Below, piece by piece: positions 19,941-48,574 of a stretch of 64,000 nt of DNA. The DNA is from an uncultured Frankiaceae bacterium (GTDB lineage: Bacteria > Actinomycetota > Actinomycetes > BP-191), in NCBI GenBank assembly GCA_964651395.1, contig CAZYXZ010000003.1, positions 52,227 to 116,226 on the forward strand, given 5' to 3'. The notes beneath the pieces are model-generated. The model made no database searches and was not told the DNA's origin. It worked only from the letters and a program-made list of their open reading frames with translations. The number at the start of each line of letters is the position of its first letter. Position 1 is the first letter of the stretch. The position numbers were made by a program, and so were the translations under genes.

Positions 19941-19983
19941 CAGCAGCAGAACATGGTGGACGAGCAACCTATGTGCCCCTTCG

Positions 19984-22215: not shown

Positions 22216-22432
22216 GACCTAGTCCTCGTTGGCCACCGGCTAGACGCAAGCAGAACCCAATGCCAATCAACTTCGTCGTGACCAGCCGGCCGGAACCTGT
22301 CTCAAGGGTCCGGACATGCGCAGGCGCTAGATCAGATCCGGCGAGATGCGACACCGATCATCCCTTGGACATGCGAAGAATGGCAGCTGAGTCTGAGCCC
22401 GCGGCTGGCGCGCCGGACTAACGCTGTACCTG

Positions 22433-25400
22433 CTAATCCAGGTCGCCGGTAGCCGAGCTAGGGCCTTCCTCGGACTCGGTAAAGGGGACATCGATCGCGC
22501 GCCGAGTGCGAATTCCACCCAAGTGAATCGTCGTGGATGGTCGCCACTCCAACTCGGTGAGTGGTGACTTGAAGATGCGCATCCTCGTCGGCCAGCCGCG
22601 TTCCAGACCCGCGATAACGGCAAGGAAGTACGCATTGCCTTGTCGCGATGCTTGATGTGACTCGGCCGCCGTGAGCGAAACCTCATCGGGCATCTCCCTG
22701 GCATGCGCCTTGATCTCGAAGTATCGAAGAAGCTCATCGACGGCGTCTGCTCCAATACCGTGTTGGTTTCGGAAGTCAGTCAGCTCGGCTATCTCTCTGA
22801 CACGAAGTGTCTCTCTGAGTAGCTCCAGCCCGAACGTTTCGACGTCGTCCTGGGTAAAGGCAGCTGGCGCAGTGCGCGGCGCCGCGCGCGGCTTGGGCGC
22901 GGGCAAGTTGTCCTTTAGTGGCCGCTTGCCACGTCGCTTGTTGGTCGGCTGGCCCTCACCGATCTCTATGGCTGCGACGTCAACTTCTACGCTCGTCTTC
23001 AACTGCCGTGTGGGCGGCGTGTCAGGGTCTTCAGTGTCTGTCGCTGTGGGTGTTGCCGGTCTGGCGACAGGTCGGCGCCCCTTCCGTGGTGCCTGCAGTT
23101 CAGCTGCGAGGTCCGCGAGTGAGTCGTCGCTGTCGCCGGCCACAGCGATCTGAATGTTCTCCGGCGCTTCACCTCGCTCAGCCCGACGCCACGCCTTCTC
23201 CCACAACAGGGCCACCTTTGTGCGATCGACCATGTCCTCGCCGGAACGGCCGAACAACGCAGCGATGGCAAGGCCGCCCGTCTCGGAATCGCGCAGTGCC
23301 TCCACGGTCCGAGCGGCGACGATGGTCGGAGTGCGGGAGACATGAGCCCCGATGGGAACCGCAACGGACCGACTCTCGGGTAGTTGAACTTCGACCGAGA
23401 GGTGGGCGGTCAGAGCGACCTGGGCGCCGATCAGCTCTGCCCATGTGAGGGACAGCCCGGCGTACACATCCGGATCCTCAGCGAGGATCATGTCGTGTAG
23501 ATGACGTACGGCGGCTTCGAAGGTCTGACGGACAGTCACGCCCGCGAGCTGTGCTGCCGGCGTCAGGCCATTGAGAGCGAACTCGGAGCGGTCGAGCGTT
23601 ATCACGCCGGCCCACGATGGAAAGTCGCCAAAGGAATCCAGGCCGCCGGGCGGGATCCACACCTGTGCATGCTCGCCCAGCGCCTCCGCTAGTGCGCGGT
23701 CGTCCACCGCGTAGATCGGTCGTTGCGTCTGCCAACCGCTGACGGTTTGGAGCGGAATCTTTCGCAACTCATCTCGCTGACGGCCCCGCATTTCTGGGTG
23801 CCTGCTCAGGTAGCGATAGACCTGCAGAAGGACTCCGCGCTCGTGTGGCTGTGGCGGGTCTTGTGCAATCTCGTTGAGCACGGCAAAGCAGACGTCCGGC
23901 TTGGGGGTACTGAGTGCCAGGACTTCCCATAGCGGTTCCAACTGGGGCTGCTCTGGGACGAATGGTCGTCTTGATCCAAAGATGGGATCGCCGCGGTAGA
24001 CGGCGGATGGGGGATACCAGCGTCCGTGCCAGTACAGCAGTCCCGGCGACTTGCGACCGATGCCAAATCTTCCGCGCAGCTGGGCAACCGTGAGCTCGCC
24101 AACCAGTGATGAGGACGTGGCGGTACCTAACGCCGGGCAGCGTTGCGCGAGGGCGAGATACAAGCTGACCGCGTCCATCGGATCCACCGTGTCAGCGTCC
24201 GTGTCGCGCAACGCCGTGAGCTCGCGGAGGACGTCCTCGGTGGTCGGAGAGGTCTTCATGCCTAGGGCATGGAGCACTGTTAGATCGCGATCTGCATCGA
24301 CTTCCGCTGCGTACCACTCTGGTTGCTCACCGAAGACACTGAGCATCTCCGGGGTTCGGACGGCGAGCTCTCTTGGAGCCTTGGCCTCACCTGCCATGTT
24401 CGACATCCAGGGGGCACTCGCCAGCCGCGATAACCAGGTCGCCGGCACCGGCCCAACTCGCTTCCAGCGGTAGTCCGAGTACACGGCGTGTGCGAACTCG
24501 TGGTCTGCATAGACGCGCCTCCAGCCGCGGCTGATGGTGGCCAAGAGGCCGCGCGCCCGTTCGCGGCGGGACCTGACAGGGCTTGCGACGATCTCTGCTA
24601 CGACAGCATCCAGGTCGGCTGATACGCGGTCTGCTTGCAGGTGCGTCGGCCGTCGCTTCAGTGCGTCGATCGCCAAGGCCTGCATCGCGCCGTTGGCCTG
24701 CCTGTGGATAGGCGACGCGGGATCATCGCGACGGAAGTCGCGCTGTCTGGGGACCGTCAGCCGAGGTACCACCTCCGCGCCCAGCGAGGAAAGAAAGGCT
24801 CGAGCACCCAAGCCCCCGCCTTCGGTCGGCCTCAGCAAGGCGCTGTACCGGCCGTCTATCCACAACAACCCGGCCGCAGTGCCGGCTGCGGGAGCCCAGC
24901 CAGCACTGCCCCCTTCGATTCGACTTGGCAGGTACGCGGTGGGTGGTGTGACCAAGCGTTCGGATCTGCTTCCGTTCTCGTGGCTGAAACCGGCTAGTAG
25001 TAGGCGTTGCCCGAGGGCAGGCGCGAGCCGGTCTCTGCGTGCGGCTGGCGCTGCCGCGAGAAGGTCCCTGATCTGCGTCAATTGCGAGTCACTCGGGGTG
25101 ATCTTGCTCTCGTGGTCAGCGATGACCTGTAGAGCAAGCTCGGGTGTGATGACGCTGTGCAGCGTGCCCGCATGCTTGAGCCAGGCCGTCACGTCTTCGC
25201 CAGCCGAGGCCCCCAGGAACTCAGGATGCAGCTGCCACGCGAAGCCCAGCTGGTGCAGGAGTTGCCCTGCTGGGCCCCCATCGTGCTGGCTTACGAGCAC
25301 ACCTTGGGAAAGTGTCTGTGGTGGCCGCACGCGGGCACCGCTGGCGAGGACCGCGCAACGATGCGTGGCGACTGTTCTGCCGAGGCCCGCGGCGAGCGCG

Positions 25401-26908
25401 GCCCCGACCAGGTCTGCGTACCACGCTGGTGGTCGCGGGTGGCGCTCATCTTCGAGAAGAGTCAGCGCCAGCGGCAAGTCGACTCGTTTGCTCACGGCCA
25501 GCTCGTCGAGAACCAGTCGCCACCGACCACCAGGATCCCGCACCGCGTTGGCGAGGGGTGTTGCCTCCGGCGCAAGCTCGGCGATGTCTGCTGCTGTGAG
25601 AACTCCGTCCAGCTCGTCAACTTCGTACGCCAATTGCTGAAGGGCGACGCCGTCGGGCATCGGCAGCAGGAGACTCTCGGCGATCTGCCTATGCACACCC
25701 TCGATGTGCTTACGCAGTCGGTCCTGGAGCCACGCGTCTTCCGCCACGAAAGACTCGTCCGCAAGCGGCACGATCTCCCAGGTCAGCGCCGGTGTGGCGC
25801 TGGCTACCTGAACCGCGATCGTCGACACAAGACGAGCGAGCTCATCTATCAGCCAGGCATTCCATGGTTCGTGTTGAAGGCGGGATCGGGCCGTGTCAGG
25901 GTCGAACTGGGCTTGCAACGCGTACGGCATTCGCGTGCGGAGCGCGATTGGCAGTCCAGCATGAATTCGCCCCGGCTCCGCCCGCGAGGGGACGGCAACT
26001 GCGATCGGGACCTCGTCGGCGGTTTCCTTTCCCGCACGACGCAGGGTGGTTGGGTGGCGGACGGTGGTCGAATACCGCGTCCAATAGCGGTCTTCACTCG
26101 GGTCGCGCACTAGGTCGACCTCGATTGACAGATCCCGCCAACGATCTGTGGTGATTGTTTCGAGGACGATGCCTCGCCGGTCGAGTTCGCGCGCTTCCGC
26201 ATCGAACAGGCGGACGGTTGAGACCGCATCCAGGAACAGGAGAAATCCGGCGTCGAAGGTACTGAACCAATCGACGACGGTGGCGGCGCTGACCTCCTCC
26301 CTGAGTGCCAGCACTAGCAACGTGTCGAGCTGCTCAGGGTCGTAGAAGCCGGGAATGCCCGGGACGGCCGGGATGATCCGGGGACCATCGCTTTCCGCTT
26401 CGAAGTGGTACGGGTGGCAATGAACCGCCATCGCGGTGCTGATCCTGCTGAGCGTCTTTAGGCCGATGCCGAACTTGCCCTTGCTGGCCGCCTCTCCTCG
26501 CTTCGTCGATACATACGCCAAGGCCATCGCCGCGGTATCGACGAACCCAATGCGAGCCCCGTCATGGGCGACGAGAAGTTCCGTTCGAGAACCCACGGTG
26601 CGAATGAGGAACCGAACTTCGTGCGCGCCCTCGTCGTCTGCATTTTGCAGAATCTCGACGAGGCCGGTCAGGCCCTCCACGTTCAGCTGTTCGGCACTGA
26701 ACGTTGCCCCTTCTAGGACGTCGCGAAGTAGACCAGGCGTCTCGTCGCGAATCAGCCGGCTCAGCTCTTGGAGGGCGGATTCTGCGAAGCTGGTGGTGAA
26801 GCGGTCCTCTATCGAGTGCTTGCGCCCATGCCGGTACAGCTGATCAGCTGCCTGTGTCCCGGCAGCACTGTCATCCGATGTCGGTCCTTCGCCGCCGTCG
26901 TTGTTCAT
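22433..26908 (-). CDS. Giant 1491-aa protein: N-terminal sacsin/Hsp90-like GHKL ATPase (HATPase_c_3-type) + long middle region + C-terminal DUF3883-like (restriction-endonuclease-like) domain
   Basis: Bergerat motifs are present: VEILQNADDEGA (motif I), HDGARIGF (motif II) and KGKFGIGLKT (motif III). The C-terminal ~150 aa (ELLRYFEIKAHAREMPDEVSLTAAESHQASRQGNAYFLAVIAGLERG) resembles DUF3883. It starts 285 nt downstream of the second tniQ on the same strand. Confidence 0.8.
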   Translation of the reverse strand: MNNDGGEGPTSDDSAAGTQAADQLYRHGRKHSIEDRFTTSFAESALQELSRLIRDETPGLLRDVLEGATFSAEQLNVEGLTGLVEILQNADDEGAHEVRFLIRTVGSRTELLVAHDGARIGFVDTAAMALAYVSTKRGEAASKGKFGIGLKTLSRISTAMAVHCHPYHFEAESDGPRIIPAVPGIPGFYDPEQLDTLLVLALREEVSAATVVDWFSTFDAGFLLFLDAVSTVRLFDAEARELDRRGIVLETITTDRWRDLSIEVDLVRDPSEDRYWTRYSTTVRHPTTLRRAGKETADEVPIAVAVPSRAEPGRIHAGLPIALRTRMPYALQAQFDPDTARSRLQHEPWNAWLIDELARLVSTIAVQVASATPALTWEIVPLADESFVAEDAWLQDRLRKHIEGVHRQIAESLLLPMPDGVALQQLAYEVDELDGVLTAADIAELAPEATPLANAVRDPGGRWRLVLDELAVSKRVDLPLALTLLEDERHPRPPAWYADLVGAALAAGLGRTVATHRCAVLASGARVRPPQTLSQGVLVSQHDGGPAGQLLHQLGFAWQLHPEFLGASAGEDVTAWLKHAGTLHSVITPELALQVIADHESKITPSDSQLTQIRDLLAAAPAARRDRLAPALGQRLLLAGFSHENGSRSERLVTPPTAYLPSRIEGGSAGWAPAAGTAAGLLWIDGRYSALLRPTEGGGLGARAFLSSLGAEVVPRLTVPRQRDFRRDDPASPIHRQANGAMQALAIDALKRRPTHLQADRVSADLDAVVAEIVASPVRSRRERARGLLATISRGWRRVYADHEFAHAVYSDYRWKRVGPVPATWLSRLASAPWMSNMAGEAKAPRELAVRTPEMLSVFGEQPEWYAAEVDADRDLTVLHALGMKTSPTTEDVLRELTALRDTDADTVDPMDAVSLYLALAQRCPALGTATSSSLVGELTVAQLRGRFGIGRKSPGLLYWHGRWYPPSAVYRGDPIFGSRRPFVPEQPQLEPLWEVLALSTPKPDVCFAVLNEIAQDPPQPHERGVLLQVYRYLSRHPEMRGRQRDELRKIPLQTVSGWQTQRPIYAVDDRALAEALGEHAQVWIPPGGLDSFGDFPSWAGVITLDRSEFALNGLTPAAQLAGVTVRQTFEAAVRHLHDMILAEDPDVYAGLSLTWAELIGAQVALTAHLSVEVQLPESRSVAVPIGAHVSRTPTIVAARTVEALRDSETGGLAIAALFGRSGEDMVDRTKVALLWEKAWRRAERGEAPENIQIAVAGDSDDSLADLAAELQAPRKGRRPVARPATPTATDTEDPDTPPTRQLKTSVEVDVAAIEIGEGQPTNKRRGKRPLKDNLPAPKPRAAPRTAPAAFTQDDVETFGLELLRETLRVREIAELTDFRNQHGIGADAVDELLRYFEIKAHAREMPDEVSLTAAESHQASRQGNAYFLAVIAGLERGWPTRMRIFKSPLTELEWRPSTTIHLGGIRTRRAIDVPFTESEEGPSSATGDLD

Positions 26909-27193
26909 GAGCGGATTCTCTCGGTTGCGGCCCTGACGTGAGCGGTCGTCTACAGACCGACCCGCCCGGACGCACTGTGTGACATCAGCTGCTCGCGTTT
27001 CACGTAACTGAGCAGTGCCCCGGTGCTACGGATCCCGGACTGGTAGCCGACTAGGTGTGAAGCGACACCGACGCGGGCCGCCGTCTGGAGGAATCCACGT
27101 CGAAGACTCGCGAAGTTGTGTTGGCCCAGTAGGCCGGCTCTTCGGCGCGGCGGCGGACAAGCGCACTCAGGGCCGGGACCTCGATGCCTCTTG

Positions 27194-28678
27194 CTACTGA
27201 CACGTTCCGGACGACATATGTCCCGTCCCTAATCGGCTCGCGCACGGGCACCACCATCCTTCGATGGAGCAGGGGGCAGCGGTTACCCGGTCAAGGCGGT
27301 GGCGCGCCAGTCGGCGAGTAGGCCACGGCCGCGTCCAGCCGCTGCTTGATGCGAGTTCACGTGCCAGCGCCATCGCCTGCTTATCAAGGCGGACCTTGTC
27401 GGCTGCTGGAAGTGCGTTGTGGACGTAGTGGGCCCACCGCTTTCCCTGCTCAGCCGGCAGTCCCAGGCTTCGGGCGGCATCCGCCCACGACGTGGTGTGC
27501 GTGCGGGCTACCGCGAGGCTGATGTACGCACGCAAGACGTCGAGCGTCGGACGGCGCAGAGCGTGAAGGTCTGCCGGGACCGCGCACGACCACGCGAGCT
27601 GTGGCATGTCGGCAAGGAACGCTGAGTGATCGGAGGTGGTGCGGGAGCGATTGAGACGGGACGACGGTCGGCCGGTCCGCCTCAGGACGTGATCCAGGAA
27701 CTCGCGCAGGACTGGTTGCCTGCCGCGGGCAAGCTGCTCAGTCAAGACCTTTCCCGCCGGCACTCTGTTGTGGCTGGCAGCCTCCTCAACGAACGCGCTG
27801 CTTGCGGAGGCAGGATCCGCCGCTTCCGCCCAGCGCCGGGCGCCGGAAACCAGTTCGCGGACACCCGCGAGATCTCTGGGAGGGCTTCGCCAGAAGCGTG
27901 TCGTTGCCGGCTGGGCTGCAAGCCCGTTGCTCAGCCAGTTCTGCAAGGACAGGACTTCGCGTAGAGCGCGCAGGCCTTCGTTCGCTGCTATCTCCACACC
28001 CGCGACACGGATGGGGCTGCCGGCGAGGACGGTGTCCACGAGGTGTTGCCAGGCAGCCTCGTGTGGCTGCATCGGCTCGGTGACGGCGGTCCGCAGATCG
28101 CCGCCACAGGGCCTTGCTCCCCGTCCGCGACCGCGGACTTCGGACATCTCTGGACGGTGGCATCGCGCGGGTTGACGGACCTGCTCCATGAAGACTGGTT
28201 GAGCACTGGTGCCGTTGCCGCCGTGGGGCCACCCGAGGCATGTGGGGCAGCGGTCAGCGAGTGTGCGGCCATGCTCGATGCATCCGACGTTGACGGCGAT
28301 TCGATGTGCGAGTTGCCACGCGCCGTCGTCGGCCAAGTGCTGCGGGCAGAAGAAGGAACCGCCAAGGTGCACCCATTCGCGGCAGGCCCACAGTCCCAAG
28401 TGCTCGCGTGTGAGTGCACTCGGAGGGGTAACGGCGTGCGTGTATGCAGCGAGCGTCATTCCGCGAACTTCTGCCGCGTCCAGATCAAGCGAATCGGCGA
28501 CATCCTCGATCAATTCGTCGGGTAGGTATGCCCCCCAGCCGGCTCGGAAGCCTGCGGGCAGCCCCACCGCATCAAGCACGAACCCGAACGGCGCCTGAAG
28601 CGCGGCGCTGAGCCGTTCGAGGTAGCTGTCGTAGCCCTCGCCGGCGATCAGCAAGGGCATCGTGGGAAGTTGGGTCAT
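27194..28678 (-). CDS. tniQ: TniQ-family protein (second paralog; TnsD/TniQ-like target selector)
   Basis: N-terminus MTQLPTMPLLIAGEGYDSYLERLSAAL and a Cys/His Zn-finger-like region FCPQHLADDGAWQLAHRIAVNVGCIEHGRTLADRCPTCLGW. It overlaps the upstream tniQ by 4 nt. Confidence 0.7.
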   Translation of the reverse strand: MTQLPTMPLLIAGEGYDSYLERLSAALQAPFGFVLDAVGLPAGFRAGWGAYLPDELIEDVADSLDLDAAEVRGMTLAAYTHAVTPPSALTREHLGLWACREWVHLGGSFFCPQHLADDGAWQLAHRIAVNVGCIEHGRTLADRCPTCLGWPHGGNGTSAQPVFMEQVRQPARCHRPEMSEVRGRGRGARPCGGDLRTAVTEPMQPHEAAWQHLVDTVLAGSPIRVAGVEIAANEGLRALREVLSLQNWLSNGLAAQPATTRFWRSPPRDLAGVRELVSGARRWAEAADPASASSAFVEEAASHNRVPAGKVLTEQLARGRQPVLREFLDHVLRRTGRPSSRLNRSRTTSDHSAFLADMPQLAWSCAVPADLHALRRPTLDVLRAYISLAVARTHTTSWADAARSLGLPAEQGKRWAHYVHNALPAADKVRLDKQAMALARELASSSGWTRPWPTRRLARHRLDRVTAAPCSIEGWWCPCASRLGTGHMSSGTCQ

Positions 28679-30057
28679 CCGGTGGCCTCTCGCGTGGCCA
28701 AGGTGCGGGCCGAGGTAGACGGCCACCGCGCGTGTAGGTCCTGAAGGATGCGGAACCACGCATCTGGCCCGGGGCCTTTGAGGGCCTCCATGGCAGCACC
28801 GAGTTCGGCGAGCAGTGTTTCGCCGATCTCGCCTTCAGCATGGCGAAAGCGCTTCGCGTCGAGGGCAGCGGCAACTGCGGCCAGCCAACAGCGCGCAGAC
28901 GCCGGGCCGTCTGGAATCGTCTCTTCGACGAAGTCTCGGAGCGCGGGTTCATACAGGCCGATCGCGTCCTCGTCGCTCAGCACGTGGGGTGGTTGCCGGC
29001 AAGGGACGTTCGACCAGAGGCCAAACAGTGTGCGTTGCGACTTTGGCGCGCGGAGGTGTGCCCCCTGTGGCCGGATGCTGTTCAGGTGCTCTCGGGCTTC
29101 GGCCAAGTCCGCGAGCATCGCCTGGGATGTGTACTTGCTCACGCCACGATGAGTGACGAGCTGGCTTGCGACTCTGCCGAGCAGCGTCTTCCACGAGTCG
29201 TCTCGCCGGGCGATGGAGACTGCCGCTGGCAGAAGCACGCCGGTCGTTGCGCGGCCGAGCATCTCGTGCCTACCCAGGCTTTCCCGAGGCCAACGATCGG
29301 TGCGAGAGGCCACGACGCCGTCGATGCCGAAAATGATGAGGAGCTGAGCCCAGTCAGCGACCGCGGCCAGTTGGCCGGGGGCCATGTCCGGCTCGTCGAT
29401 GAGCCGCTGCAGCCATGTACTGGATGCCAGCAGCCCCGGCACGTCCGTGGCATCGAGCGGCGTCGCGTCAGCCAACGAGGACTGACAGTGCTGGCACGAT
29501 GGGGGGTCGGAGCGTGCGCTGAGTTCGAGGGGGGCATGGCAGCCCGCTTGCCCGCAGCTCGAGCAGTCATCGAGGAGCAGGACGCCGTGCTTGACGCAGA
29601 CCGGCTGGAGTGGGACGAGCCACGTGAATCGGTCAACCGTGGGGCGCTCGGCCAGGCACAGTGGGCAGTACCCGGAGGTGTGACCGGGCATCCATTTGCC
29701 TGGGCGAGGGTCGCGGGGGTGCAGGCCCCACCGTGAGGCACCAAGGCTTGCGACGTCATGCGAGATGGGGGTGAGGCTCGAGAACCGGAGGCCGGTCATC
29801 GCCGCCAGCTGCTCCGCGCTACGGTCGAGTGCCGTGGCGAGCTGCTGTAGGTCGCCATCGGAAGGCAGCATCAATCGGCAGGACCAGCGCTTGGTGAATT
29901 TCACGTCGTGGCGGTGACCGGGATCGAATCCAACGGCTCGAAGGAAGGTGTGTAGAGGCAGATCGTTGGCGCGTGCCAGTCGCCGTACCAAGCTCTGCAA
30001 TGACTCGTCGGCGGCAGGCTCAACGTCGGACGGCAGCCCCGCGGCATCATCAGTCAC
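28675..30057 (-). CDS. tniQ: TniQ-family protein (first paralog)
   Basis: Classic TniQ N-terminus ESLQSLVRRLARANDLPLHTFL and a Cys cluster YCPLCLAERPTVDRFTWLVPLQPVCVKHGVLLLDDCSSCG. It overlaps tnsC by 4 nt (ATGA). Confidence 0.8.
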   Translation of the reverse strand: MTDDAAGLPSDVEPAADESLQSLVRRLARANDLPLHTFLRAVGFDPGHRHDVKFTKRWSCRLMLPSDGDLQQLATALDRSAEQLAAMTGLRFSSLTPISHDVASLGASRWGLHPRDPRPGKWMPGHTSGYCPLCLAERPTVDRFTWLVPLQPVCVKHGVLLLDDCSSCGQAGCHAPLELSARSDPPSCQHCQSSLADATPLDATDVPGLLASSTWLQRLIDEPDMAPGQLAAVADWAQLLIIFGIDGVVASRTDRWPRESLGRHEMLGRATTGVLLPAAVSIARRDDSWKTLLGRVASQLVTHRGVSKYTSQAMLADLAEAREHLNSIRPQGAHLRAPKSQRTLFGLWSNVPCRQPPHVLSDEDAIGLYEPALRDFVEETIPDGPASARCWLAAVAAALDAKRFRHAEGEIGETLLAELGAAMEALKGPGPDAWFRILQDLHARWPSTSARTLATREATG

Positions 30058-41100: not shown

Positions 41101-41278
41101 CTGGCGCAAGGAGCAAGCAACCCGCGCCGCGGTGAGAGTCGCGGTCGAGGAAACCCTCGACCGGTTGCCGGAGAAGTTCACCCGGCAGCTCTACGCACAG
41201 AAGTGCGACGCGGTCTATCAGCATGTCTTCGACAGCTACTGGGACGACGGACACTCGATATACGAGCACGTCGCCTAG
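38114..41278 (+). CDS. hsdR: Type I restriction enzyme endonuclease/helicase subunit
   Basis: 1054 aa with an N-terminal PD-(D/E)xK region, the SF2 helicase motifs GSGKT and ITDEAHRTQ, and a C-terminal domain. It overlaps hsdS by 4 nt. Confidence 0.9.
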   Translation: MTPSGRYTEDQLVEQPAIQLFESLGWEAVNAYHETLGPNGTLGRDNKSEVFLTRRLRAAIERLNPMAPSEAVEQAVAELTKARTVMHYARANAEIHGLLRDRVEVSVRQPDGTTLPERLIVIDWDNPENNDFLLVSQLWVHSDLYRRRTDLVGYVNGIPLVFIELKASHRSLKHAYDDNLRDYRDAIPELFTPNGFIVLSNGADTKVGSITAGWEFFSEWKKIDSEGEQGSVSLETVIRGMCTKDRLLDIVENFIAYQDLPGGFVKILARNHQYLGVNNAMARLEELRHATPEERGKLGVFWHTQGSGKTISMLFFSQKVLRKLPGNWSFVIVTDRDDLDEQAYKEFSYAGAIAEKHMRATSSEHLRQLLGEDHRYVFTLIHKFRTDKGETHPVISDRDDVIVITDEAHRTQYDTLALNMRNALPNASFLGFTGTPLIAGEERTREVFGDYVSVYNFAASAADKATVPLYFENRIPQVAIENPNFADDLMAIVEEADLDDDQERKLGRLLGQQYELITRDDRLDAVAGDIVDHFLGRGFPGKALVVSIDKITAVRTYEKVQRFWAERLEHSKQAIAGGGLTEDEHDRLVREIVFMRNTDMAVVISQSQNEISDMAARGLDIKPHRKRMVEESLEDRFKDAQDPLRIAFVCSMWTTGFDVPSLSTVYLDKPLRNHTLMQTITRANRVFPEKNNGLIVAYVDVFSNLQKALAIYAIGGKPGDVPVEEKGALVDALSEAVGDLRAFCAAREVDLDALAGLTGFELVAEGKRTVELLMVDDDEKIAFLSRTALVDRLYKAILPDTRANQFSRLRAVSKFLADGIAAYTERPDVGSVLGRIQQLLDESVAAQEYVIPRTDAEALFDLGAVDWTGLQDAFKQGRPRTAAQRLRTLLAARITALVRLNPSRVDLVERFEKLVANYNAGSINTETFFQELLSFSASLSTEEARALSENLNEEQLAIFDLLMRPAPDLSDEEHAQVKRVAEELLAVLKRDKIVLDWRKEQATRAAVRVAVEETLDRLPEKFTRQLYAQKCDAVYQHVFDSYWDDGHSIYEHVA

Positions 41279-41399
41279 GGCGCAAACTGTCGTTGTCGAG
41301 CATCTGCTCGCCGCTACCTTCGCGCACTCGGCACCTGACGCCGCCCGTGGAGGACGATACGTGGCGCGATCTGCGATGAGAGGCATTGAGGATCTGCTC

Positions 41400-41858
41400 A
41401 TGACACGAGTGCTAGGCATCAACGTCGCGGGTTCGACGGCCTATCTCGCGCTCTGCGACGACGCGGAGATCACGAACGACAAGCCGGAGAAACTCGTCGC
41501 ACCCGATGGGCTGGCGGCTGACAGTGGCACGCTCGCATTTCTCGACGACATCGGCCGTGTGCTTGGTCAGCTCCGGGTTGAACGCGTTCGCGTCCTGGAC
41601 CCCGAGCCGACTTATTCGACCAGCGTCCAGAGTGTCGTCCCGAGGATCACGATCGAGACCCTGTTCCTGCTAGCCGCGTGGCAGCGAGGCCTCGACGCCG
41701 GCCGCATCAGTCGCGCCCGTATCCGGTCGCTGCTCGACCTGGGCCGATCGGGCTCGCTCAGCTCCTTGGCCGCGAGCGTGACCAAGCCCGTAGGCTCCTC
41801 GTGGACCGGCAAGCGCGATCTGGCGGCGCTGGCAGCGCTCGCCGGCGGGCGGGAGTGA
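41400..41858 (+). CDS. Hypothetical protein coupled to the Ser/Thr kinase (N-terminus faintly RNase-H/YqgF-like)
   Basis: GAGGA RBS and ATG 41400. The protein reads MTRVLGINVAGSTAYLALCDD.... Its stop is 2 nt before the kinase ATG, inside the kinase RBS (GGGAGTGAccATG). Confidence 0.45.
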   Translation: MTRVLGINVAGSTAYLALCDDAEITNDKPEKLVAPDGLAADSGTLAFLDDIGRVLGQLRVERVRVLDPEPTYSTSVQSVVPRITIETLFLLAAWQRGLDAGRISRARIRSLLDLGRSGSLSSLAASVTKPVGSSWTGKRDLAALAALAGGRE

Positions 41859-41860
41859 CC

Positions 41861-42967
41861 ATGGTGCTGCACGGCGAACGACTGGACCGGCCCACCTACA
41901 ACTTCCTGACGACCATCAACGAGGGCAACACTGGGATGGCGTACCTGGGCGTGCATGAGGTGTACGACCGCAAAGTCGTCCAAAAGGTCATCTCGCTGCT
42001 CGGGGTCGAGGACGCGATCGCGTTCAACGAGCCCCGCATGCTGAACGAGATGCGCCACCCACATCTCGTAGAGGTCTGGGAGGCCCAATGGGACCCGGAC
42101 AACAAGGCAGTCAAGGCGATCACATTCACCATGCCGTTCTACGAGGGCGGCAGCGTCAACCAGCAGCTCGCGACCGGCAGCCGGTTCAGCCTCGCCGAGG
42201 CGGTCAGCGTCACGCGCGGCACGCTCTCCGCGTTGCACTACCTCCACGTCGAGCGCGCCGTGCTGCACCGCGATATCAAGCCCGGCAACATCTTCCTCTC
42301 CGCAGACCGTCGTCACCCCTACCTCGGCGATCTGGGCAGCGCCGTCACCATGACCCCAGCCAGGGATGCAGAAGCGCGAAGCGGTACTCCGCTTTACCGC
42401 CCCCCGGAGAACCACCTCGGGCGGTACACCGTGCGCGGGGAGCTCTACGGACTCGGTATGACCCTGCGGGAGATGCTCCACGGGCCATACCCCTACGCCG
42501 ACTTCGACGACGCCACGATTGCCACTCGCCTGGACGCCGGCCGACGAGCCATCCCCGATCGCTTCTACGAGATCACGGCGCCGCAGGTTCCGGATGCACT
42601 AGCTCGACTCGCCCGCAGTCTCACCCATGCCGATCCGGCGCGACGGCCGGCGTCCGCCGCAGACGCTCTCAGGCGACTCGACAGCATCCGTTATCTGACG
42701 TGGCACGTCGTCCATGAGGACGCCGACAGGGTCGTGTGGGATGCCACGTGGTCTAACCAGCCCGCCAACCGGGCGAGGGTCTATCGCATTGAACTGACGC
42801 AGATTCGGCGCGGCCGCTACGCGGGACTCGTTCGTGCAGAGGCCCGCTGGCGCCCACCGGGCACCGCCGCCTGGCGTGGCATACGCGCCTTGGATGCCCG
42901 GCTTCGCTCGGACGATCGGGCGGCGCTACGGGGCGTCTTTTCAGCGGTCGAGCAAGCCGCGAGGTAA
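41861..42967 (+). CDS. Ser/Thr protein kinase (Hanks-type) with ~100-aa C-terminal extension
   Basis: Motifs: VVQKV (beta-3 Lys), catalytic loop HRDIKPGNIFL, LGDLGSA, GTPLYRPPE. Confidence 0.75.
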   Translation: MVLHGERLDRPTYNFLTTINEGNTGMAYLGVHEVYDRKVVQKVISLLGVEDAIAFNEPRMLNEMRHPHLVEVWEAQWDPDNKAVKAITFTMPFYEGGSVNQQLATGSRFSLAEAVSVTRGTLSALHYLHVERAVLHRDIKPGNIFLSADRRHPYLGDLGSAVTMTPARDAEARSGTPLYRPPENHLGRYTVRGELYGLGMTLREMLHGPYPYADFDDATIATRLDAGRRAIPDRFYEITAPQVPDALARLARSLTHADPARRPASAADALRRLDSIRYLTWHVVHEDADRVVWDATWSNQPANRARVYRIELTQIRRGRYAGLVRAEARWRPPGTAAWRGIRALDARLRSDDRAALRGVFSAVEQAAR

Positions 42968-43350
42968 CCGCTCACTTCGTCCACTGCTTGAACAACCGTC
43001 GGGTCCAGCCGTAGCACCGCACGCCTCGCCGCCGTCCGCGCACCCGCCGCAATTGCATACCCTGCAGTCAAGCCCGGGGCTTCCGTGACGAGCGAGCCCT
43101 CGGCCGCGAGCTCCCACAACGCGGGAGTAACCCCTCGAGCCCGACGCCCAACCTCGGCGTCCGGCTCGATCCGCAGCACTGGTAACCGAGCGTGAGACCA
43201 CGCCGCCCGGAACGCGTCGTCGCTGGCCACCCGGTCCATCAGCGTGCTGAGTCCGCGATGCAGCGGTGTGTGGTCGCGCGCGTCTAGCCAGCAGTCGTCG
43301 GCTGCTGCGAAGATCAGACGAAGCAGAAATGTCAGACCTGTATCAGACAT
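42817..43350 (-). CDS. Hypothetical protein
   Basis: ATG 43350 sits in an AT-rich divergent promoter region. The ~135-aa protein-like N-terminus is MSDTGLTFLLRLIFAAADDCWLDARDHTPLHRGL.... The C-terminal low-complexity tail overlaps the kinase 3' end by ~150 nt. Confidence 0.3.
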   Translation of the reverse strand: MSDTGLTFLLRLIFAAADDCWLDARDHTPLHRGLSTLMDRVASDDAFRAAWSHARLPVLRIEPDAEVGRRARGVTPALWELAAEGSLVTEAPGLTAGYAIAAGARTAARRAVLRLDPTVVQAVDEVSGYLAACSTAEKTPRSAARSSERSRASKARMPRQAAVPGGRQRASARTSPA

Positions 43351-43372
43351 ATGTTTATCGTAGGAGGCCGGT

Positions 43373-43702
43373 GTGACATCGGGAGTCGACGACACGTTGG
43401 ATCCCGGAGAACTCCTCTGCACATCACGCGACCGCCAGGTCGGGCTGCGGGTTCCTGTCGCCGTCAGCCAGCGCGTCGATGCACTCCTCGCCCGGGCCCG
43501 AGCGGCGGGCGAGCGGACGGACCGCAAGGAACTGATCACGGCCTTGTTGGCGGAGACAGATCTCTCCGGCGACCAACTGGGCGACTTGCTGCGGCGGTAT
43601 CGACGCATGACTGTCGCGCACGCCCTTCTGGACCAGAGCGCTGATGGCTCCGTTGTGAGACTCGCGCGAGCTCGGCCCGGGCCGCGCCCGCGTGCCTCCT
43701 GA
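43373..43702 (+). CDS. Small hypothetical protein (possible DNA-binding/regulatory)
   Basis: GTG start 7 nt after a TAGGAGG RBS; 109 aa, charged and helical (RKELITALLAETDLSGDQLGDLLRRYRR). Confidence 0.4.
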   Translation: MTSGVDDTLDPGELLCTSRDRQVGLRVPVAVSQRVDALLARARAAGERTDRKELITALLAETDLSGDQLGDLLRRYRRMTVAHALLDQSADGSVVRLARARPGPRPRAS

Positions 43703-43912
43703 CGCAGTAGCGGGGATGGCCCGTCATCACCGCAAGACTCAGCACGGCCATGACGAGTACTCCGGCCCAGTAGAGCCACGCGTTGCGTCCGCCGCGCTGA
43801 GGCGGATCGCTTGTGGCTCGATGCCCCGCCCATCGACAGGAACCCCGCTCACGGCGTCACCTTTCCACGAACGCGTCGGCGCGACATTGCGCGACAGCCC
43901 GGATCGACAGCG

Positions 43913-45085
43913 TCACGGAAGGCTCCAAAGCGGTTCGTAAGGTCCGGTCTTTCCCAACCAGTTCATCAATCGGAGAGGACCAACCGCGTTAGCCCACCAG
44001 CCGATGGCGACTGCCAGCTCAACTGGGGTCGCCAAGTACAGGTCTATGCAGTCGATGTCGTTCCGGTCCGAGAGCTCCGTCAGGGTGCTGCCAATCTGTG
44101 CAGCCCAAGCCGCGCAAGTGTTTGCGTCTTGAACTGCCGTTCTCGCGGTCCCTTTCGGGGGCTTGAGCGTGAGCCGTTCACGGTATTTGTCGCCGGCCCG
44201 CACCCGTGCAGTGATCCCGGCGTCGACGTCGCGACTCACTGCGACCCCCAACGCCGCCGCTCGGGCATCGATCGGACCGGCCGGGAAGGCTTCCCGCACA
44301 AGAGGCTCGACGGCATCGGGCCTACGGATCGTGTGGAACTCCTCCTCTCCCCGTGGCATGCGAATGGTGTAGCCGGTTGGTTCGGCGAACGCGTACCCAA
44401 TGGCTGCAGCAATGGGCAGGTGCGACTTGATGGCCAGTTGGAGGGTCGACGGCCCGTATCGGGCCTTCAGCAATCCGGCCACAGTTGCGAGGGCTTCCTT
44501 CAGATCCGCACGCGTGGCTTCGTCGATCGCACCTGAGCTGAATCGATGGCGCCAATCGACACTGAGGACAGCGGTGTCTCGCATGTCTGCCGTGTCGTCG
44601 TAGGTGACGAGGCGCATCGACGCCGGCAGGTTCTCGCTGTAGGCCCGCGCAATGAGTGCCTCTGCCACACGCGCTGCGACGGCGCGCGCCGTCACAGTCG
44701 GATCAGAGCCTGGCTGAACGACGTGGCCGTTCTGCTCGCCCAGTTCGAATCCTGTCGCCTCGCGCAGGCGATCGCTGCCTTCGCTCGGCGTCATGTCATC
44801 GAACACCGGGATGACGAGCAGGCCGTGGCCGGACCGCGCCGCGGCGATAGCTGGGAGCTCGACAGTCGCGACGTACTCGGACGCCAACAGCCTCGCATCG
44901 ACCCACACAATCGCCGCCCTGCAGGTGGCGAGGTCCGCAAGCACGAACTCGGTCGTCCCTGCTCCTACCGTTAGGCTCTCGACGTCGCGCCATGGCGTGA
45001 CTCCATGTTCAGAGAGTGCCTCGACAAGAAGGCGTCGTTCGTCCCGACTACCCGAGTAGCTGATGAACGTTCGGTTCACGCGCAA
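43913..45085 (-). CDS. TIR-domain effector with C-terminal putative SAVED-like sensor domain (CBASS Cap-type effector)
   Basis: The N-terminus FISYSGSRDERRLLVEALSEHGVTPWRD... is a typical TIR fold with a WxxxE-like segment (SEYVATVEL). The ~250-aa C-terminal domain is putative SAVED. The TTG start overlaps the upstream gene's stop by 10 nt. Confidence 0.65.
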   Translation of the reverse strand: MRVNRTFISYSGSRDERRLLVEALSEHGVTPWRDVESLTVGAGTTEFVLADLATCRAAIVWVDARLLASEYVATVELPAIAAARSGHGLLVIPVFDDMTPSEGSDRLREATGFELGEQNGHVVQPGSDPTVTARAVAARVAEALIARAYSENLPASMRLVTYDDTADMRDTAVLSVDWRHRFSSGAIDEATRADLKEALATVAGLLKARYGPSTLQLAIKSHLPIAAAIGYAFAEPTGYTIRMPRGEEEFHTIRRPDAVEPLVREAFPAGPIDARAAALGVAVSRDVDAGITARVRAGDKYRERLTLKPPKGTARTAVQDANTCAAWAAQIGSTLTELSDRNDIDCIDLYLATPVELAVAIGWWANAVGPLRLMNWLGKTGPYEPLWSLP

Positions 45086-47142
45086 GCCTCCGGGGATGCA
45101 GCGGGCAGGTCGCCGGCCTCGCAGATGTCAGCCGGGATCAGCTGCCCTTCGGTGACTACGTGCCCACGAACGAGTCTTGTGTCCGCGTGCACGATCACAA
45201 GCACCGGTTCGTCGGTGCCCGACTCCTCGGCGAGCGCAAGCATGCTGGCGACGTCGAGGTGGCTCGGACCGCTGGGCTCCGGGCCTGTGTGGGAGTGCCA
45301 CTCACCGAGATAGCCCAGACGCTCGTCCGCGTCGTGAAACGGTTCCACGGTGCGCGGAACGCTGTGCGCGGCGATCCTGAAGCTCTGGGGAGCAGCACCG
45401 GGATCGGAGACCTCGACTGCGGCTGTCACAACTGGTCTGGCATCGATGAGCGCGCCGACAAGGACCCCGCCGGTCTCGTTGGGCGCAGCGGCACTGGCCG
45501 CGGACCGCATACTCGCCAGCGCGCTCTCCACCACGTCGATCGTCCTCGTCATGTCCGTCCGACGCAGGCGCCCCACTCTGTGGAACGGGACGGGTCCCGA
45601 ACGAAGTACCTCGATCACCTCGTCGGGCTGCTCATTGCGGCCGACAAGGAAGTCGACGACCACCTCGGAAGCTAGTGCGGCTGCATGCACGACTGCGATC
45701 GGAGGCGAGTTGTGGACCAGCGCTAGGCAACCCGTCTCCGAGCCGACGTATTCGACCTCCTCCTCTAACGGGGTGATTTCGGGATACGCGTCGAGGTGCG
45801 GGCGCCGGATGAACAGAGTGTCCGAAGGCAGCGCTTGTCGGCGTACTCGCGCAACGGTCCCTCCCCGAAACAGCGCGGCCGAGACCAACGGCCTCTGCTG
45901 GGCGGCCGCGACCTGTCCGGCCAGCTGAGACAGACCCACGAAACCGGTCGCTTCGACAGTCACATCGACGTCCGCGAGCAGTTCGCGCAGCCCGTCAATC
46001 GACCACTTGATGCCGTAGTCGTCCTCCGCTGGTACTTCGACGCGGACCCACGGGTATTGCTCCAGGTCCGCCTGCAGGGCGTGGGTCTTCAACGTCGCCG
46101 CGGGAGTGCCCGGCGCGGCAGCATGGCGGATCAGGTTGGCTGGCCAGAGCCGGTCCGAGTCCACAAGGCGCAGCGTGCCCACGCCGGCACGGGCGAGGAG
46201 CTCGGCGACGTGCGACCCGACGGCACCGACGCCGAGGATCGCGACCCGTTTCCCCTGCAGTGTCGCCGCGTCGGGTCCGGCCCGCAGCAGCAGCTCGTCC
46301 GGGCCGTTTGGCCGTAGCGCTACGAGGGCGGTTTCCCGCGCGCCGTCAGCGCCGCGGACCGAGAGAAGCATCGTCGCCACGAGCCCGGCGTTGTTGCGCC
46401 AGATGAGGCCGAACATGACGACAGCGCGATCGCGAAGGTCCTTGTCGAGTCGTTCGCGTTGCCGATCGGTCAGCAGTGACCGGAACTCATCGAGGTTGCG
46501 TGGTGGCCCTGAGACGTTTTCGCGCAAGAACCATCGGCCGCGGACCTGGCCGTAGTTCACTCCGCCGGGCAGCGGGCTGCCCGCTGTGTACGCGCCCGGG
46601 CGCAGGTCGTAGACAGCTCCTGGACTGGGGCGCCCGTCCGCCGATACCGCATCCGCGAACTGGAACTCACCGTGCTGACCATCGGCGGTCTCGCCGGACA
46701 GCAGCCCCTCCAGATCGACGAGTCCGGCAACCATCGGCATCGGCTGCTGCCAGTAGATCTCGGGGTTGCGCGCATTCTCCGAACGAGCAAATCCGAGATC
46801 AGCGTCCTCGACCCACTCTGCGATCCGCGCACTCAACCCGTCGAGAGTGGTCCACCGTTGGCTCGCATCCTCCGCCTGCCAGATGCACAGGCGTTCTTGG
46901 TCGGCGTGCCAGTTTGAGATCCCCGGGACGATGAGCAGTGGCGGAAGGTATGGCCACGAGACCCTCAGACGGATGCCCATGCGCTCCGCGGTCGTGTACC
47001 CAGCGGAGATAAGGGCGGGATCCGTGGGGCCCGTCCAGGTCCAATCGTCTTCGCGTACGTAGCCGGCCCGCTCGAGTTCACCGATGAAGGATCGGAGGCT
47101 GTCGGGGTCTGCAGCGGAGTCGAACGGCGGGTCAGCGACCAC
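45076..47142 (-). CDS. E2-like / E1 (ThiF/MoeB Rossmann) / JAB (JAMM) deubiquitinase-like fusion protein (Cap2+Cap3-type CBASS accessory)
   Basis: The N-terminus is E2-like (WHADQERLCIW, candidate catalytic Cys). The middle is a ThiF Rossmann domain (RVAILGVGAVGSHVAELLARAGVGTLRLVDSDRL). The C-terminus carries JAMM-type GEWHSHTGPEPSGPSHLD. The GTG start at 47142 overlaps the CD-NTase stop. The longer ORF N-terminal extension (to 47562) is low-complexity and is rejected. Confidence 0.7.
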   Translation of the reverse strand: MVADPPFDSAADPDSLRSFIGELERAGYVREDDWTWTGPTDPALISAGYTTAERMGIRLRVSWPYLPPLLIVPGISNWHADQERLCIWQAEDASQRWTTLDGLSARIAEWVEDADLGFARSENARNPEIYWQQPMPMVAGLVDLEGLLSGETADGQHGEFQFADAVSADGRPSPGAVYDLRPGAYTAGSPLPGGVNYGQVRGRWFLRENVSGPPRNLDEFRSLLTDRQRERLDKDLRDRAVVMFGLIWRNNAGLVATMLLSVRGADGARETALVALRPNGPDELLLRAGPDAATLQGKRVAILGVGAVGSHVAELLARAGVGTLRLVDSDRLWPANLIRHAAAPGTPAATLKTHALQADLEQYPWVRVEVPAEDDYGIKWSIDGLRELLADVDVTVEATGFVGLSQLAGQVAAAQQRPLVSAALFRGGTVARVRRQALPSDTLFIRRPHLDAYPEITPLEEEVEYVGSETGCLALVHNSPPIAVVHAAALASEVVVDFLVGRNEQPDEVIEVLRSGPVPFHRVGRLRRTDMTRTIDVVESALASMRSAASAAAPNETGGVLVGALIDARPVVTAAVEVSDPGAAPQSFRIAAHSVPRTVEPFHDADERLGYLGEWHSHTGPEPSGPSHLDVASMLALAEESGTDEPVLVIVHADTRLVRGHVVTEGQLIPADICEAGDLPAASPEACA

Positions 47143-48256
47143 CGAATCCTCGCTCTGCGCTCCCGCCCACGGCCAGATTGGCCGCTGCGGCGCCCATCGT
47201 GGCGCCCGTGCCACGGCAACCAGGCGGGAGTGGGAAGACCTGCGTGTCCCGGCCGTTGCCTCCGAAGACCGCACGCCATTCATGTGCCGCCTGGCATTGC
47301 GAGTCCGCGGTGACGGCGCTCCTCGCTCGTCTTGCCAGCATCGCGAATGTCTCCGCAGCGACTTGCGATTCGGCTTGCGTTGGCGCCGGCTGGTAGGGCA
47401 CGTCGAGAACTGGGTCGCGGATCGGCTCGCTCGAAGCCAGGCGGGACGCCAAGAACACCAACGCAGACTCTGCGATATCAGCCCAGCTCGCTCCAACGAT
47501 CGCACCCGTTCGGAAACCCTCGTGTAGAGCCATCTCGTAGTAGAGCGCGCCTGGCTTTGCATCGGGCAAGTGCGCGGACTTGATCTGCCGGACCATCCTC
47601 ACGACGCGAACGAATCCACCGATGCCGTCGATCTGCGGATCCCGGTTGCGCTCGTGAGTGAGGTCCGTGAGTGCAACTGGGTTGGTGAGACGCCAACGTC
47701 CGCTGCGCGCCACTACATCTGTTCGGGGATCGCGCTGCACCTCGGGGATTCCGTAGTGCTTCCCCCACTTGACCGCAGGCACGACGTCCACCGAGAACTC
47801 GAACGCCAGCTCCGGTAGCCGCTGAATCACCGACTCCGCGCGGGTTGCCTCCCATTCGTAGACCTGTGCCGCGCTTCTCAGTGATGCCACGCTCGGCGTT
47901 CGAGTGCGACTGAAGGCGATCTTGAACGACCGCGGTTGCCTTGTGAGTCGTGATTGCGCAGCGAACGGGTCCAAGGCTCGGCCGAACATCTCGTAGGTTT
48001 CGTCGGCAGTGATCGACTCCGTGTTCTCTGAGGACAGCCGCCCGAAGACGTCGACATCCTTGCCCGGCCACGTGGATACCTTGCGCCCGTAGCTGCCGAT
48101 GAGGACGTCTTCCAGGCCGTGCCCGAGCAGCTCGGTGCTGGATCGCAGGACCTGCCGCACCTCTTGATGCGCCGCGATCGCGATCAGGGCTCTGTCCCCC
48201 AGCCGGATCCGCTGCTGCATGACCGTGAATTGAGGGTTCAGCTCGAACCTCGCCAT
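47132..48256 (-). CDS. cGAS/DncV-like nucleotidyltransferase (CD-NTase, SMODS family)
   Basis: Polymerase-beta-type motif IGSYGRKVSTWPGKDVDVFGRL (GS...DxD). Start is placed at ATG 48256 (MARFELNPQF...). Confidence 0.75.
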   Translation of the reverse strand: MARFELNPQFTVMQQRIRLGDRALIAIAAHQEVRQVLRSSTELLGHGLEDVLIGSYGRKVSTWPGKDVDVFGRLSSENTESITADETYEMFGRALDPFAAQSRLTRQPRSFKIAFSRTRTPSVASLRSAAQVYEWEATRAESVIQRLPELAFEFSVDVVPAVKWGKHYGIPEVQRDPRTDVVARSGRWRLTNPVALTDLTHERNRDPQIDGIGGFVRVVRMVRQIKSAHLPDAKPGALYYEMALHEGFRTGAIVGASWADIAESALVFLASRLASSEPIRDPVLDVPYQPAPTQAESQVAAETFAMLARRARSAVTADSQCQAAHEWRAVFGGNGRDTQVFPLPPGCRGTGATMGAAAANLAVGGSAERGFGGR

Positions 48257-48427
48257 CTGCGGTCCAATCGATGCGCTGTCGTGGGGTCTACACGGCCCTT
48301 GCGGTCCCATCAGAGATATCACTCGGGTGTGACAACTTGGCCCGGTGTGGGGCATGCCTGTGGACGACCGGGGACAACGGATGGCTAGGGGTCGGACTCC
48401 GCTTCCGCACGGTCATGGTGATCAGGT

Positions 48428-48495
48428 CGTGCGCAGAAGTTTGATCACGCGCTGATCAGATAGCTCTGCAATTGATCACTGGAATTGCCACCTAC
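48428..48495. repeat. Related motif copy GCGCAGAAGTTTGATCACGCGC plus TCTGCAATTGATCACTGGAATTGC palindrome at the right island edge
   Basis: Similar to AGAAGTTGATCTTGCGCGC (19918) and TCTGCAATTGCGCAG (19797). It lies in the lower-GC spacer between the CD-NTase start and the dnaB stop. Confidence 0.4.
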
Positions 48496-48574
48496 AATTC
48501 GCCTCGGAACGCCCGCGATTCGCCGAAGTCGCCCCGTGACGCGGGAATTTGCCCCTAGGGTGCTGTGTCAGCAT

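Follow-up and report, generated by a model that had tools for sequence, protein, structure and literature searches.

Tn7 inserts ~25 bp past glmS, and a TnsD-type selector gives such insertions their fixed distance from a conserved coding motif. The ends of Tn7 are asymmetric: sites are dispersed in the left end and packed in the right one. Herein, a comparable arrangement is described in a stretch of 64,000 nt from an uncultured Frankiaceae bacterium (contig CAZYXZ010000003.1)—referred to as the window, all coordinates being window positions—in which a defence-rich Tn7-like element, named X, abuts the 3′ end of dnaB.

The defence-rich cargo of Tn7-like transposons has been catalogued, and an uncharacterised, Actinobacteria-dominated clade has been described (Benler et al. 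2021, PMC8649781). Faure et al. (PMC10293859) described loci that contain a pair of TniQ/TnsD genes, and stacked or rearranged Tn7-like islands are exemplified by Tn6022/AbaR at comM of Acinetobacter (PMC11014353). The gene dnaB is not mentioned in PMC8649781, PMC10293859, or the Streptomyces Tn7-like survey (10.1101/2024.11.13.623437). A literature search yielded no paper linking Tn7-like elements to dnaB as an attachment site; mention elsewhere is possible.

The island next to dnaB very probably arose when an element transposed into the dnaB 3′ end in the manner of Tn7, with specificity for both site and orientation. Inverted ends, identical 5-bp flanks, gene content, and G+C content at third codon positions (GC3) agree in delimiting X. 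The element and its borders comprise the following features:

20758-48573, − strand: X, a 27,816-bp Tn7-like transposon with its right end towards dnaB and its tns genes co-oriented with dnaB
20758-20850, + strand: left end of X, starting with TGCCGGCACAGCGCC and containing three CAGGCGAATT-type sites at 20776, 20807, and 20833
48453-48573, − strand: right end of X, starting with TGCTGACACAGCACC and containing GGCGAATT-type sites, then an inner TGTAGGTGGCAATTCC and AATTGCAGA box
19836-19840, unstranded: TCTAG copy 1, target-site duplication left of a mini-element, Y
20753-20757, unstranded: TCTAG copy 2, duplication between Y (right side) and X (left side)
48574-48578, unstranded: TCTAG copy 3, duplication right of X, holding the dnaB stop codon (48575-48577)
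48590-48613, − strand: dnaB coding end, CACTACTCCCGCTTCGTCGACATG, encoding HYSRFVDM; conserved in 80/80 loci and the presumed binding site of the target selector

The ends were located by reading the intergenic DNA, followed by targeted alignments and shuffle tests; a generic repeat finder run on the window did not reveal them. They are imperfect inverted ends with 5′-TG...CA-3′ termini. Over 85 nt, the inverted similarity between the left and right ends of X scores 37, compared with a maximum of 30 in dinucleotide shuffles (0/300 reach it). The left end carries GGC(G/A)AATT copies at 20778, 20809, and 20835 on the + strand, spaced by 31 and 26 nt, and the right end consists of four or five tightly packed sites (48553, 48533, 48524, and 48503 on the − strand). 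At both ends, the first GGC(G/A)AATT site is found at offset 20 from the terminus. X begins one base past the dnaB stop, and the duplication at 48574-48578 takes in the third base of the terminal Thr codon, the stop codon TAG, and the base after it. dnaB is intact because the target duplication includes its stop codon.

An earlier note on this DNA, made from the letters alone, had postulated an accessory defence island reaching from 22216 to the dnaB stop, possibly built by a Tn7-like element plus later insertions at what looked like an integration hotspot. Horizontal acquisition of a defence island next to the dnaB stop is supported. Its right border (48574) is correct to the base, X ending at 48573, and the proposed builder is borne out by the inverted ends, the repeat arrays, and the 5-bp duplication. 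Direct repeats at the junctions, which it had recommended looking for, are present as TCTAG at 20753-20757 and 48574-48578, and also at 19836-19840. The left border was misplaced, as X starts at 20758 and is preceded by Y further left (19841-20752); hence, X takes in both the pyrE-like gene at 20905-21468 and the EcsC-like one at 21541-22215. The hotspot idea gained support from three generations of elements in the window and from other genomes in which Tn7-like elements occupy this position.

The compositional island is real and statistically clear. The window DNA has ~70% G+C, with bulk values of 0.706/0.707 for the flanks, 0.646 for X (20758-48573), and 0.614 for Y (19841-20752). Mean GC3 is 0.909 for 23 flank genes (those up to 16.4 kb and those from 48.6 kb onwards) versus 0.757 for 18 island genes (20.9-48.4 kb; Mann-Whitney p=5e-8), so that the compositional difference on which the earlier note relied holds. 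Four open reading frames (ORFs) between 16.7 and 20.6 kb have GC3 of 0.75-0.78, extending the island-like composition leftward to ~16.4 kb; over the whole of 16.4-48.6 kb, GC3 of the genes is 0.76-0.77. All 100-nt windows with GC<=0.54 fall inside 19.8-48.5 kb. GC dips listed in that note were recovered at 19.86-20.0, 20.66-20.76, 43.28-43.42, and 48.40-48.52 kb; the one at 34.6-34.8 kb misses the GC<=0.54 threshold.

X is not the only element at this position. Two further ones lie on its left:

19841-20752, + strand: Y, a 912-bp non-autonomous mini-element with inverted ends TGCCGACGATGCGG... and TCTAG on both sides
19984-20643, + strand: sole ORF of Y, 219 amino acids (aa), with a lipoprotein-like N terminus and no family match
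19787-19835, − strand: Z, an older right-end stump with its terminus TGTAGGG at 19830, followed by the 5-nt spacer AGTGG (19831-19835)

Directly after the TCTAG at 19836-19840, Y starts with TGCCGACGATGCGGCTTCT..., and a near-perfect inverted copy finishes at 20752. Its GTGAGAAGT sites are located at 19860, 19891, and 19915 on the left (+ strand) and at 20704 and 20684 on the right (− strand); the left-site spacing of 31 and 24 nt resembles that of the X left end. The two ends of Y align with a score of 45 (shuffle maximum 32) and the left ends of Y and X with a score of 38 (shuffle maximum 28), neither being reached in 300 shuffles. The ends of Y are thus homologous to those of X and differ in the repeat core, which is GTGAGAAGT in Y versus GGCGAATT in X. 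The heptamer TCTAGTG occurs in the window at 19836 and 20753 only.

Z (19787-19830) shows homology with the inner portion of the X right end (48453-48496), with a score of 40 compared with shuffle maxima of 25-33 (0/300 and 0/200), and this alignment begins exactly at TGTAGG on the − strand. When X and Y are removed in silico, the sequence reads ...GACATGAGTCCTACGACCTAGAAGTGG joined directly to TGTAGGG, which places the Z terminus 21 nt past the GACATG of dnaB; this +21 offset equals the spacing found in other genomes. No left end of Z was found between 16.38 and 19.0 kb. The stretch to the left of Z (16380-19786) contains four ORFs with island-like GC3 of 0.75-0.78, among them two without family match and one short NAD-dependent epimerase-like gene, and a transposon end was not found there. 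It may be what is left of the interior of Z, or else DNA acquired earlier and unrelated to it.

The dnaB 3′ end was compared with 80 other actinobacterial dnaB loci obtained by a genome scan with the DnaB C terminus; loci from other genomes carry L-numbers. The coding end CAC TAC TCS CGS TTC GTS GAC ATG is conserved across them, and the gene order 3′ of dnaB is not. A TGTAGG or TGTCGA terminus lies 19-22 nt past GACATG in 12/80 loci (X of the window lies at +16), and 12 of the 17 such motifs within 45 nt of GACATG fall inside this 4-nt span (+19 to +22). In those 12 loci, the stop codon is found 6 to 15 nt past GACATG, and the terminus offset is unaffected. Hence, the distance is fixed relative to the conserved coding motif and independent of the stop codon, as a TnsD-type selector would give.

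Iterated searches with the window proteins revealed tnsA and tnsB directly after dnaB and co-oriented with it in three of these loci. In L010, a Frankiaceae metagenome-assembled genome (MAG), tnsA follows dnaB immediately, and in L026 (Paraoerskovia marina), it is found 0.85 kb beyond dnaB. In L037 (Actinocrinis sp., 10699-17121), a MerR-family gene and a SMODS/OAS-like nucleotidyltransferase are situated between the dnaB-proximal TGTAGGGAC end and tnsA; two GATGGCGG repeats recur there ~170 nt upstream of tnsA, echoing the layout of the window. Behind dnaB of two Cellulomonas loci (L023:10690-17350 and L034:10690-15340), multiple forward and reverse TGTCGAGATGCA ends are present with 5-bp flanks that do not match cleanly, which suggests stacked mini-elements or solo ends. 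The reuse of the dnaB 3′ end as an integration hotspot is therefore supported by the three generations in the window and by Tn7-like elements at the same spot elsewhere.

The transposition genes of X form one co-oriented block:

27194-28759, − strand: TniQ2, a TnsD-sized target selector of 521 aa (Pfam TniQ 51 bits, cut-off 27)
28675-30057, − strand: TniQ1, a second TnsD-sized selector of 460 aa (Pfam TniQ 70 bits, cut-off 27)
30054-31088, − strand: TnsC (AAA_22 41.9 bits and TniB 33.1 bits, both over cut-off)
31085-33091, − strand: TnsB, a DDE transposase with likely start at 33064 and a weak Mu-transpos_C match
33088-34149, − strand: TnsA-like endonuclease subunit (NF033179 TnsA_like_Actin, 52 bits, under the cut-off of 110)

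TnsB is joined to rve/Mu-transpos_C proteins by jackhmmer and has 437 HMMER relatives of ~650-750 aa. Its nearest relative among 1.84 billion representatives is 39% identical, and four relatives lie below E=1e-30. A word-index homologue search gave four matches for TnsB, the identical protein being encoded on a 2.8-kb contig only. For TnsC, the same kind of search gave an identical protein as the sole match, whose genomic location was not found, and for TniQ1 it gave no homologues. A full HMMER search identified the siblings L084 (TnsB 39% identical) and L085 (32%), both from sample SRR33619856, which likewise exhibit a tnsA-B-C-TniQ-TniQ layout and a TnsC of 40% identity. In both, a defence block lies directly upstream of tnsA, as in X: L084:733-8178 comprises a HATPase/Z1/DUF4420/AIPR block with Vsr, and L085:2-6440 a type I restriction-modification (R-M) system with split HsdR and a YgjP-like gene. 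The second ends of these sibling elements were not found within their contigs.

TniQ2 shares 31-34% identity over ~480 aa with the second TniQ of L084 and L085, whereas TniQ1 has only the N-terminal TniQ domain in common with them. Because of this full-length conservation in the two nearest siblings, TniQ2 is favoured as the candidate dnaB selector—a guess made from sequence comparison. TnsA aligns over its E...PD...D core with the TnsA of L037, which itself carries Pfam Tn7_TnsA-like_N. In the D-x-K/R column, a Thr (D-V-T) is found in the window TnsA and in those of L084:8995-10014 and L085:7518-8489, with E, PD, and D conserved; the relatives L026, L037, L082, and L083 have Lys or Arg in this column. 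The 5′-cleavage chemistry of this TnsA clade may differ.

By analogy with Tn7, transposition would proceed as follows. One TniQ/TnsD-like protein would bind the last dnaB codons (HYSRFVDM) and recruit TnsC, which in turn would direct TnsA/TnsB to cut and paste the element, right end facing dnaB, at +16 nt from GACATG for the X/Y type and at ~+21 for the TGTAGG type. A newcomer would insert between dnaB and the resident element, displacing the older ones. As insertion always takes place next to dnaB, Z, Y, and X would be ordered from oldest to newest, and the order of the elements fits serial insertion at one site. The repeat core of Y (GTGAGAAGT), being unlike that of X (GGCGAATT), may explain how X escaped Y-mediated target immunity. 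At an unoccupied dnaB site, ...GACATGAGTCCTACGACCTAGA would be expected to border either on DNA foreign to these elements or on AGTGG and Z.

Several points weigh against this account. The termini of X are TGC...GCA, where TGT...ACA is canonical. We infer, by likeness to Tn7, both the binding of TnsB to the end repeats and the binding of a TniQ protein to dnaB. The insertion of X is reconstructed rather than observed, because no empty site or close relative was found: the best genome-scan match has 85% DnaB identity and no downstream genes in common, an exact-protein look-up of RplI returned no record, and metagenome scans gave no match, either to TnsB or to a degenerate DNA pattern of the dnaB 3′ end. 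Present-day activity of X is only putative, since its TnsA scores below the NCBIfam cut-off and carries Thr in D-x-K. Finally, tnsA is located 14.4 kb from the right end of X, which is unusual among Tn7-like elements and therefore calls for either cargo on the right side or a fusion of two units.

The first of these two readings is possible: this clade may simply bear right-side cargo, as L084, L085, and L037 have defence genes just upstream of tnsA as well. This shared layout also speaks for the second, in which X consists of two tandem or fused units—a reading that comes close to an even chance without quite reaching it. The autonomous unit T (20758 to ~34671) would contribute the tns genes, Tiamat, PDC-S29, and the orotate phosphoribosyltransferase (OPRT)-like gene, and the non-autonomous defence unit U (~34687 to 48573) the R-M system, the kinase, and the cyclic-oligonucleotide-based antiphage signalling system (CBASS). 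The pair would have formed at the dnaB site of an earlier host and moved here as a composite via the left end of T and the right end of U. The junction between them is marked by one feature:

34656-34730, unstranded: internal end-like relic, consisting of a right-end-type site TGTAGGCACAATTCC (34671, − strand), GTCCG/GGAAG, then TGCTGCTGGGTGACAGCAC...CCGAATTTCG (+ strand)

The TGTAGGCACAATTCC site lies 520 nt upstream of tnsA in the orientation right for a fusion, and the layout of this junction (CCTACA, 5 nt, 5 nt, then TGC...) equals that of the Z/Y junction; on this reading, the 10 nt that separate the inner ends may be left over from the dnaB flank in the earlier host. The pattern TAGG-N3-5-AATTCC has three matches in the window versus 0.03 expected, two in the right end of X and one at the internal relic, but it was defined after the site had been seen. 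Moreover, ~1.2 kb at the junction is devoid of a convincing coding frame, and L084 contains a three-copy repeat array 330-360 nt upstream of its tnsA. Against a fusion, local alignments of the candidate inner ends with the X and Y ends were no better than shuffles, whether the junction is placed at 34701/34706 or at the TGTAGG of 34671. The two ends of T do not match obviously, the X left end being of the TGCCGRC type and the inner right-end site TGTAGG-like. TCTAG or any other matching 5-bp pair is absent from the internal junction, which also tells against transposition into dnaB as described above. This weak relic (~34.67-34.71 kb) is the only internal candidate for the later insertions into the island that the earlier note had envisaged, Y and Z lying outside the coordinates it gave. 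The outer boundaries of X and the mechanism of Tn7-type insertion stand whichever of right-side cargo or fusion holds.

Far less probable—very unlikely, in our judgement—is a ~26-kb island at 22216-48574 between a housekeeping pyrE and dnaB, composed of a Tn7-like module and unrelated later insertions. The pyrE-like gene does exceed the TIGR00336 cut-off, and the gene content and right border are as this version has them. Its left border, however, is already contradicted: targeted alignment found no end-like repeats at 22216-22440 or 26905-27200 as a candidate left end, and an inverted end with TCTAG is present at 20753-20758, to the left of the pyrE-like gene. The pyrE-like and EcsC-like genes have island values of GC3 (0.80 and 0.72), the latter is a PDC-S29 match, and the pyrE-like protein is distant from mycobacterial PyrE. 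The least credible explanation of all is an island brought in by an integrase, an integrative and conjugative element, or a phage, or an old vertically inherited variable region with coincidental end-like repeats: although variable DNA without shared gene order lies 3′ of dnaB in all 80 relatives and no empty site was seen, a Pfam scan of island ORFs found no integrase or other tyrosine or serine recombinase, phage, or conjugation genes, two inverted-repeat pairs with statistical support are bordered, directly at their ends, by three identical 5-bp flanks, and a tnsBC-tniQ set with a tnsA-like gene is there, oriented as expected.

The cargo of X presumably serves anti-phage defence almost entirely and consists of the following genes:

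20905-21468, − strand: OPRT-like gene ("pyrE"), TIGR00336 114 bits, narrowly over the cut-off of 106.8; GC3 0.80
21541-22215, − strand: EcsC-like protein, Pfam EcsC 37 bits, PADLOC defence candidate PDC-S29 94 bits; GC3 0.72
22433-26908, − strand: TmtA (Tiamat), a sacsin/GHKL-type ATPase giant, PADLOC PDLC03968 1241 bits over residues 9-1480 of 1491
35323-41278, + strand: type I R-M system, with hsdM (35323-36885), hsdS (36882-38117), and hsdR (38114-41278)
41400-41858 and 41861-42967, + strand: small ORF and Ser/Thr kinase, the kinase resembling the PADLOC families mad6 and PD-T4-6
42817-43350 (− strand) and 43373-43702 (+ strand): two small divergent ORFs without family match, with an AT-rich, promoter-like gap between them
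43913-48355, − strand: type II CBASS, with the CD-NTase (47132-48355), a Cap2(E1/E2)-Cap3(JAB) fusion (~45076-47130), and a TIR-SAVED effector (43913-45085)

TmtA also matches the NCBIfam sacsin P-loop domain. The R-M system is supported by N6_Mtase (289 bits), Methylase_S (58 bits), and, in HsdR, HSDR_N and SWI2_SNF2 with a C-terminal domain. In CBASS, the PADLOC scores are 231 bits for Cyclase, 325 for E1-E2, and 86 for JAB—the latter two fused—and 115 for TIR-SAVED, with Pfam matches to ThiF, Prok-JAB, SAVED, and TIR_2. The GHKL giant (TmtA), the Tn7-like module, the type I R-M system, and CBASS, all named in the earlier note, were thus recovered by hidden Markov model (HMM) searches; its kinase pair turned out to be a single Ser/Thr kinase (41861-42967), preceded by a small partner ORF. 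The pyrE that it had taken for the housekeeping left flank is instead atypical cargo, because it lies inside the duplication-bounded X, has a GC3 of 0.80, neighbours PDC-S29, and is distant from M. tuberculosis PyrE (57 bits); its best solved relatives are eukaryote-type OPRTs (73 bits). At the left end of X, the OPRT-like gene and the EcsC-like PDC-S29 gene (20905-22215) may constitute a two-gene defence module.

Some further observations concern the interior of X. The small ORF (41577-41607) and the kinase gene (41998-42028) each contain one arm of a 31-nt inverted repeat that is 94% complementary. The 1.2 kb separating tnsA from hsdM, apparently non-coding, contains a 38-nt GC-rich hairpin (GTAGGGCCCGCGAC...GTCGCGGGCCTTAC, 34382-34419). 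The GC dip at 43.3 kb was considered as an insertion junction and rejected, as it corresponds to the gap between the two divergent small ORFs.

To the right of X, dnaB is followed by three small genes and then by rplI, ssb, and rpsF; the presence of dnaB, rplI, ssb, and rpsF on this side, as reported in the earlier note, was likewise confirmed by HMM searches. The closest DnaB proteins in one-genome-per-species collections are 85% identical and belong to Mycobacteriales and Frankiaceae MAGs, with downstream genes not in common. DnaB (48575-50422, − strand) contains a 158-aa insertion in its P-loop (GK|ALALDTP...PTHN|ST; window 49262-49735) with a mini-intein-like look and Ala at position 1, for which Pfam gave no intein family match. 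The same insertion is found in Kribbella (L025), and the DnaB matches of many relatives are split there. The left flank beyond 16.4 kb comprises a P-type ATPase, a SpoIIE phosphatase, an S15 peptidase, and an ECF sigma factor. A palindrome, TACCCCCCTAGGGTA, at 16340-16356 separates a TTGACA-type promoter from the start of the ATPase gene (13959-16379, − strand); we take it to resemble a CsoR-type copper operator.

Taken more broadly, the last codons of dnaB would serve throughout the phylum Actinomycetota as an "attTn7-like" site that has not been reported before. It would be used by three or more end families (TGTAGGG, TGTCGAGATGCA, and TGCYGRC), each at its own fixed offset from GACATG, and repeated homing would stack autonomous and satellite elements into defence islands. 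The clade described here would be a rare lineage—marked by a pair of TnsD-like selectors, TGC/GCA termini, a TnsA lacking the customary Lys, and defence genes placed between tnsA and the right end—that may capture right-side cargo by fusing with satellites. This generalisation is advanced tentatively, as one that is slightly more apt to fail than to hold. In practice, the mapped ends, together with a duplication into which the stop codon of the essential dnaB is drawn, replace a vague "hotspot" with a base-precise mechanism, and they provide a rule for spotting such islands, namely to inspect the 16-22 nt past the dnaB GACATG. The ends, TnsABC, and the TnsD-like selector are candidate parts for site-specific integration in high-GC Gram-positive bacteria, and the PDC-S29 and OPRT-like pair and the kinase module are cargo of note.

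Compared with Tn7 and Tn7-like elements, X shares a TnsB transposase, here with a putative TnsA as the second subunit, the AAA+ regulator TnsC, and selectors of the TniQ/TnsD family. It also shares asymmetric multi-repeat ends with TG...CA termini and a 5-bp duplication, and its end repeats are, by analogy, of the kind bound by TnsB in Tn7. As in these systems, the target gene stays intact and is faced by the right end and by the tns genes. X differs from Tn7 in its target, dnaB, whose stop codon is taken into the duplication; in its TGC/GCA instead of TGT/ACA termini; in having two TnsD-sized selectors and no TnsE; and in the position of tnsA, which 14 kb, including defence cargo, separate from the right end. 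In addition, its TnsB is at most 39% identical to any representative, and its TnsA belongs to a clade without Lys/Arg in the D-x-K column. The likeness to the Actinobacteria-dominated clade of Benler et al. (PMC8649781) rests on the actinobacterial host, the TnsA_like_Actin match (under its cut-off), and the CBASS and R-M cargo. With Tn6022/AbaR (PMC11014353), the locus has in common that related elements or ends pile up at one site and that composite islands arise from proximal insertions. It differs from Tn6022/AbaR in host, target, and selector (TnsF/TniQ at comM), and in that the neighbouring elements here have different repeat cores and one identical 5-bp duplication in common. Homing of Tn7-like elements to the 3′ ends of genes via TnsD/TniQ is thus an established principle, with Tn7 at glmS and others at tRNA genes and comM; the attachment site, the end type, and the architecture of X are new variants of it. 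The comparison indicates that the dnaB 3′ end is to actinobacteria what glmS is to the hosts of Tn7: a safe harbour for several transposon families, where defence accumulates.

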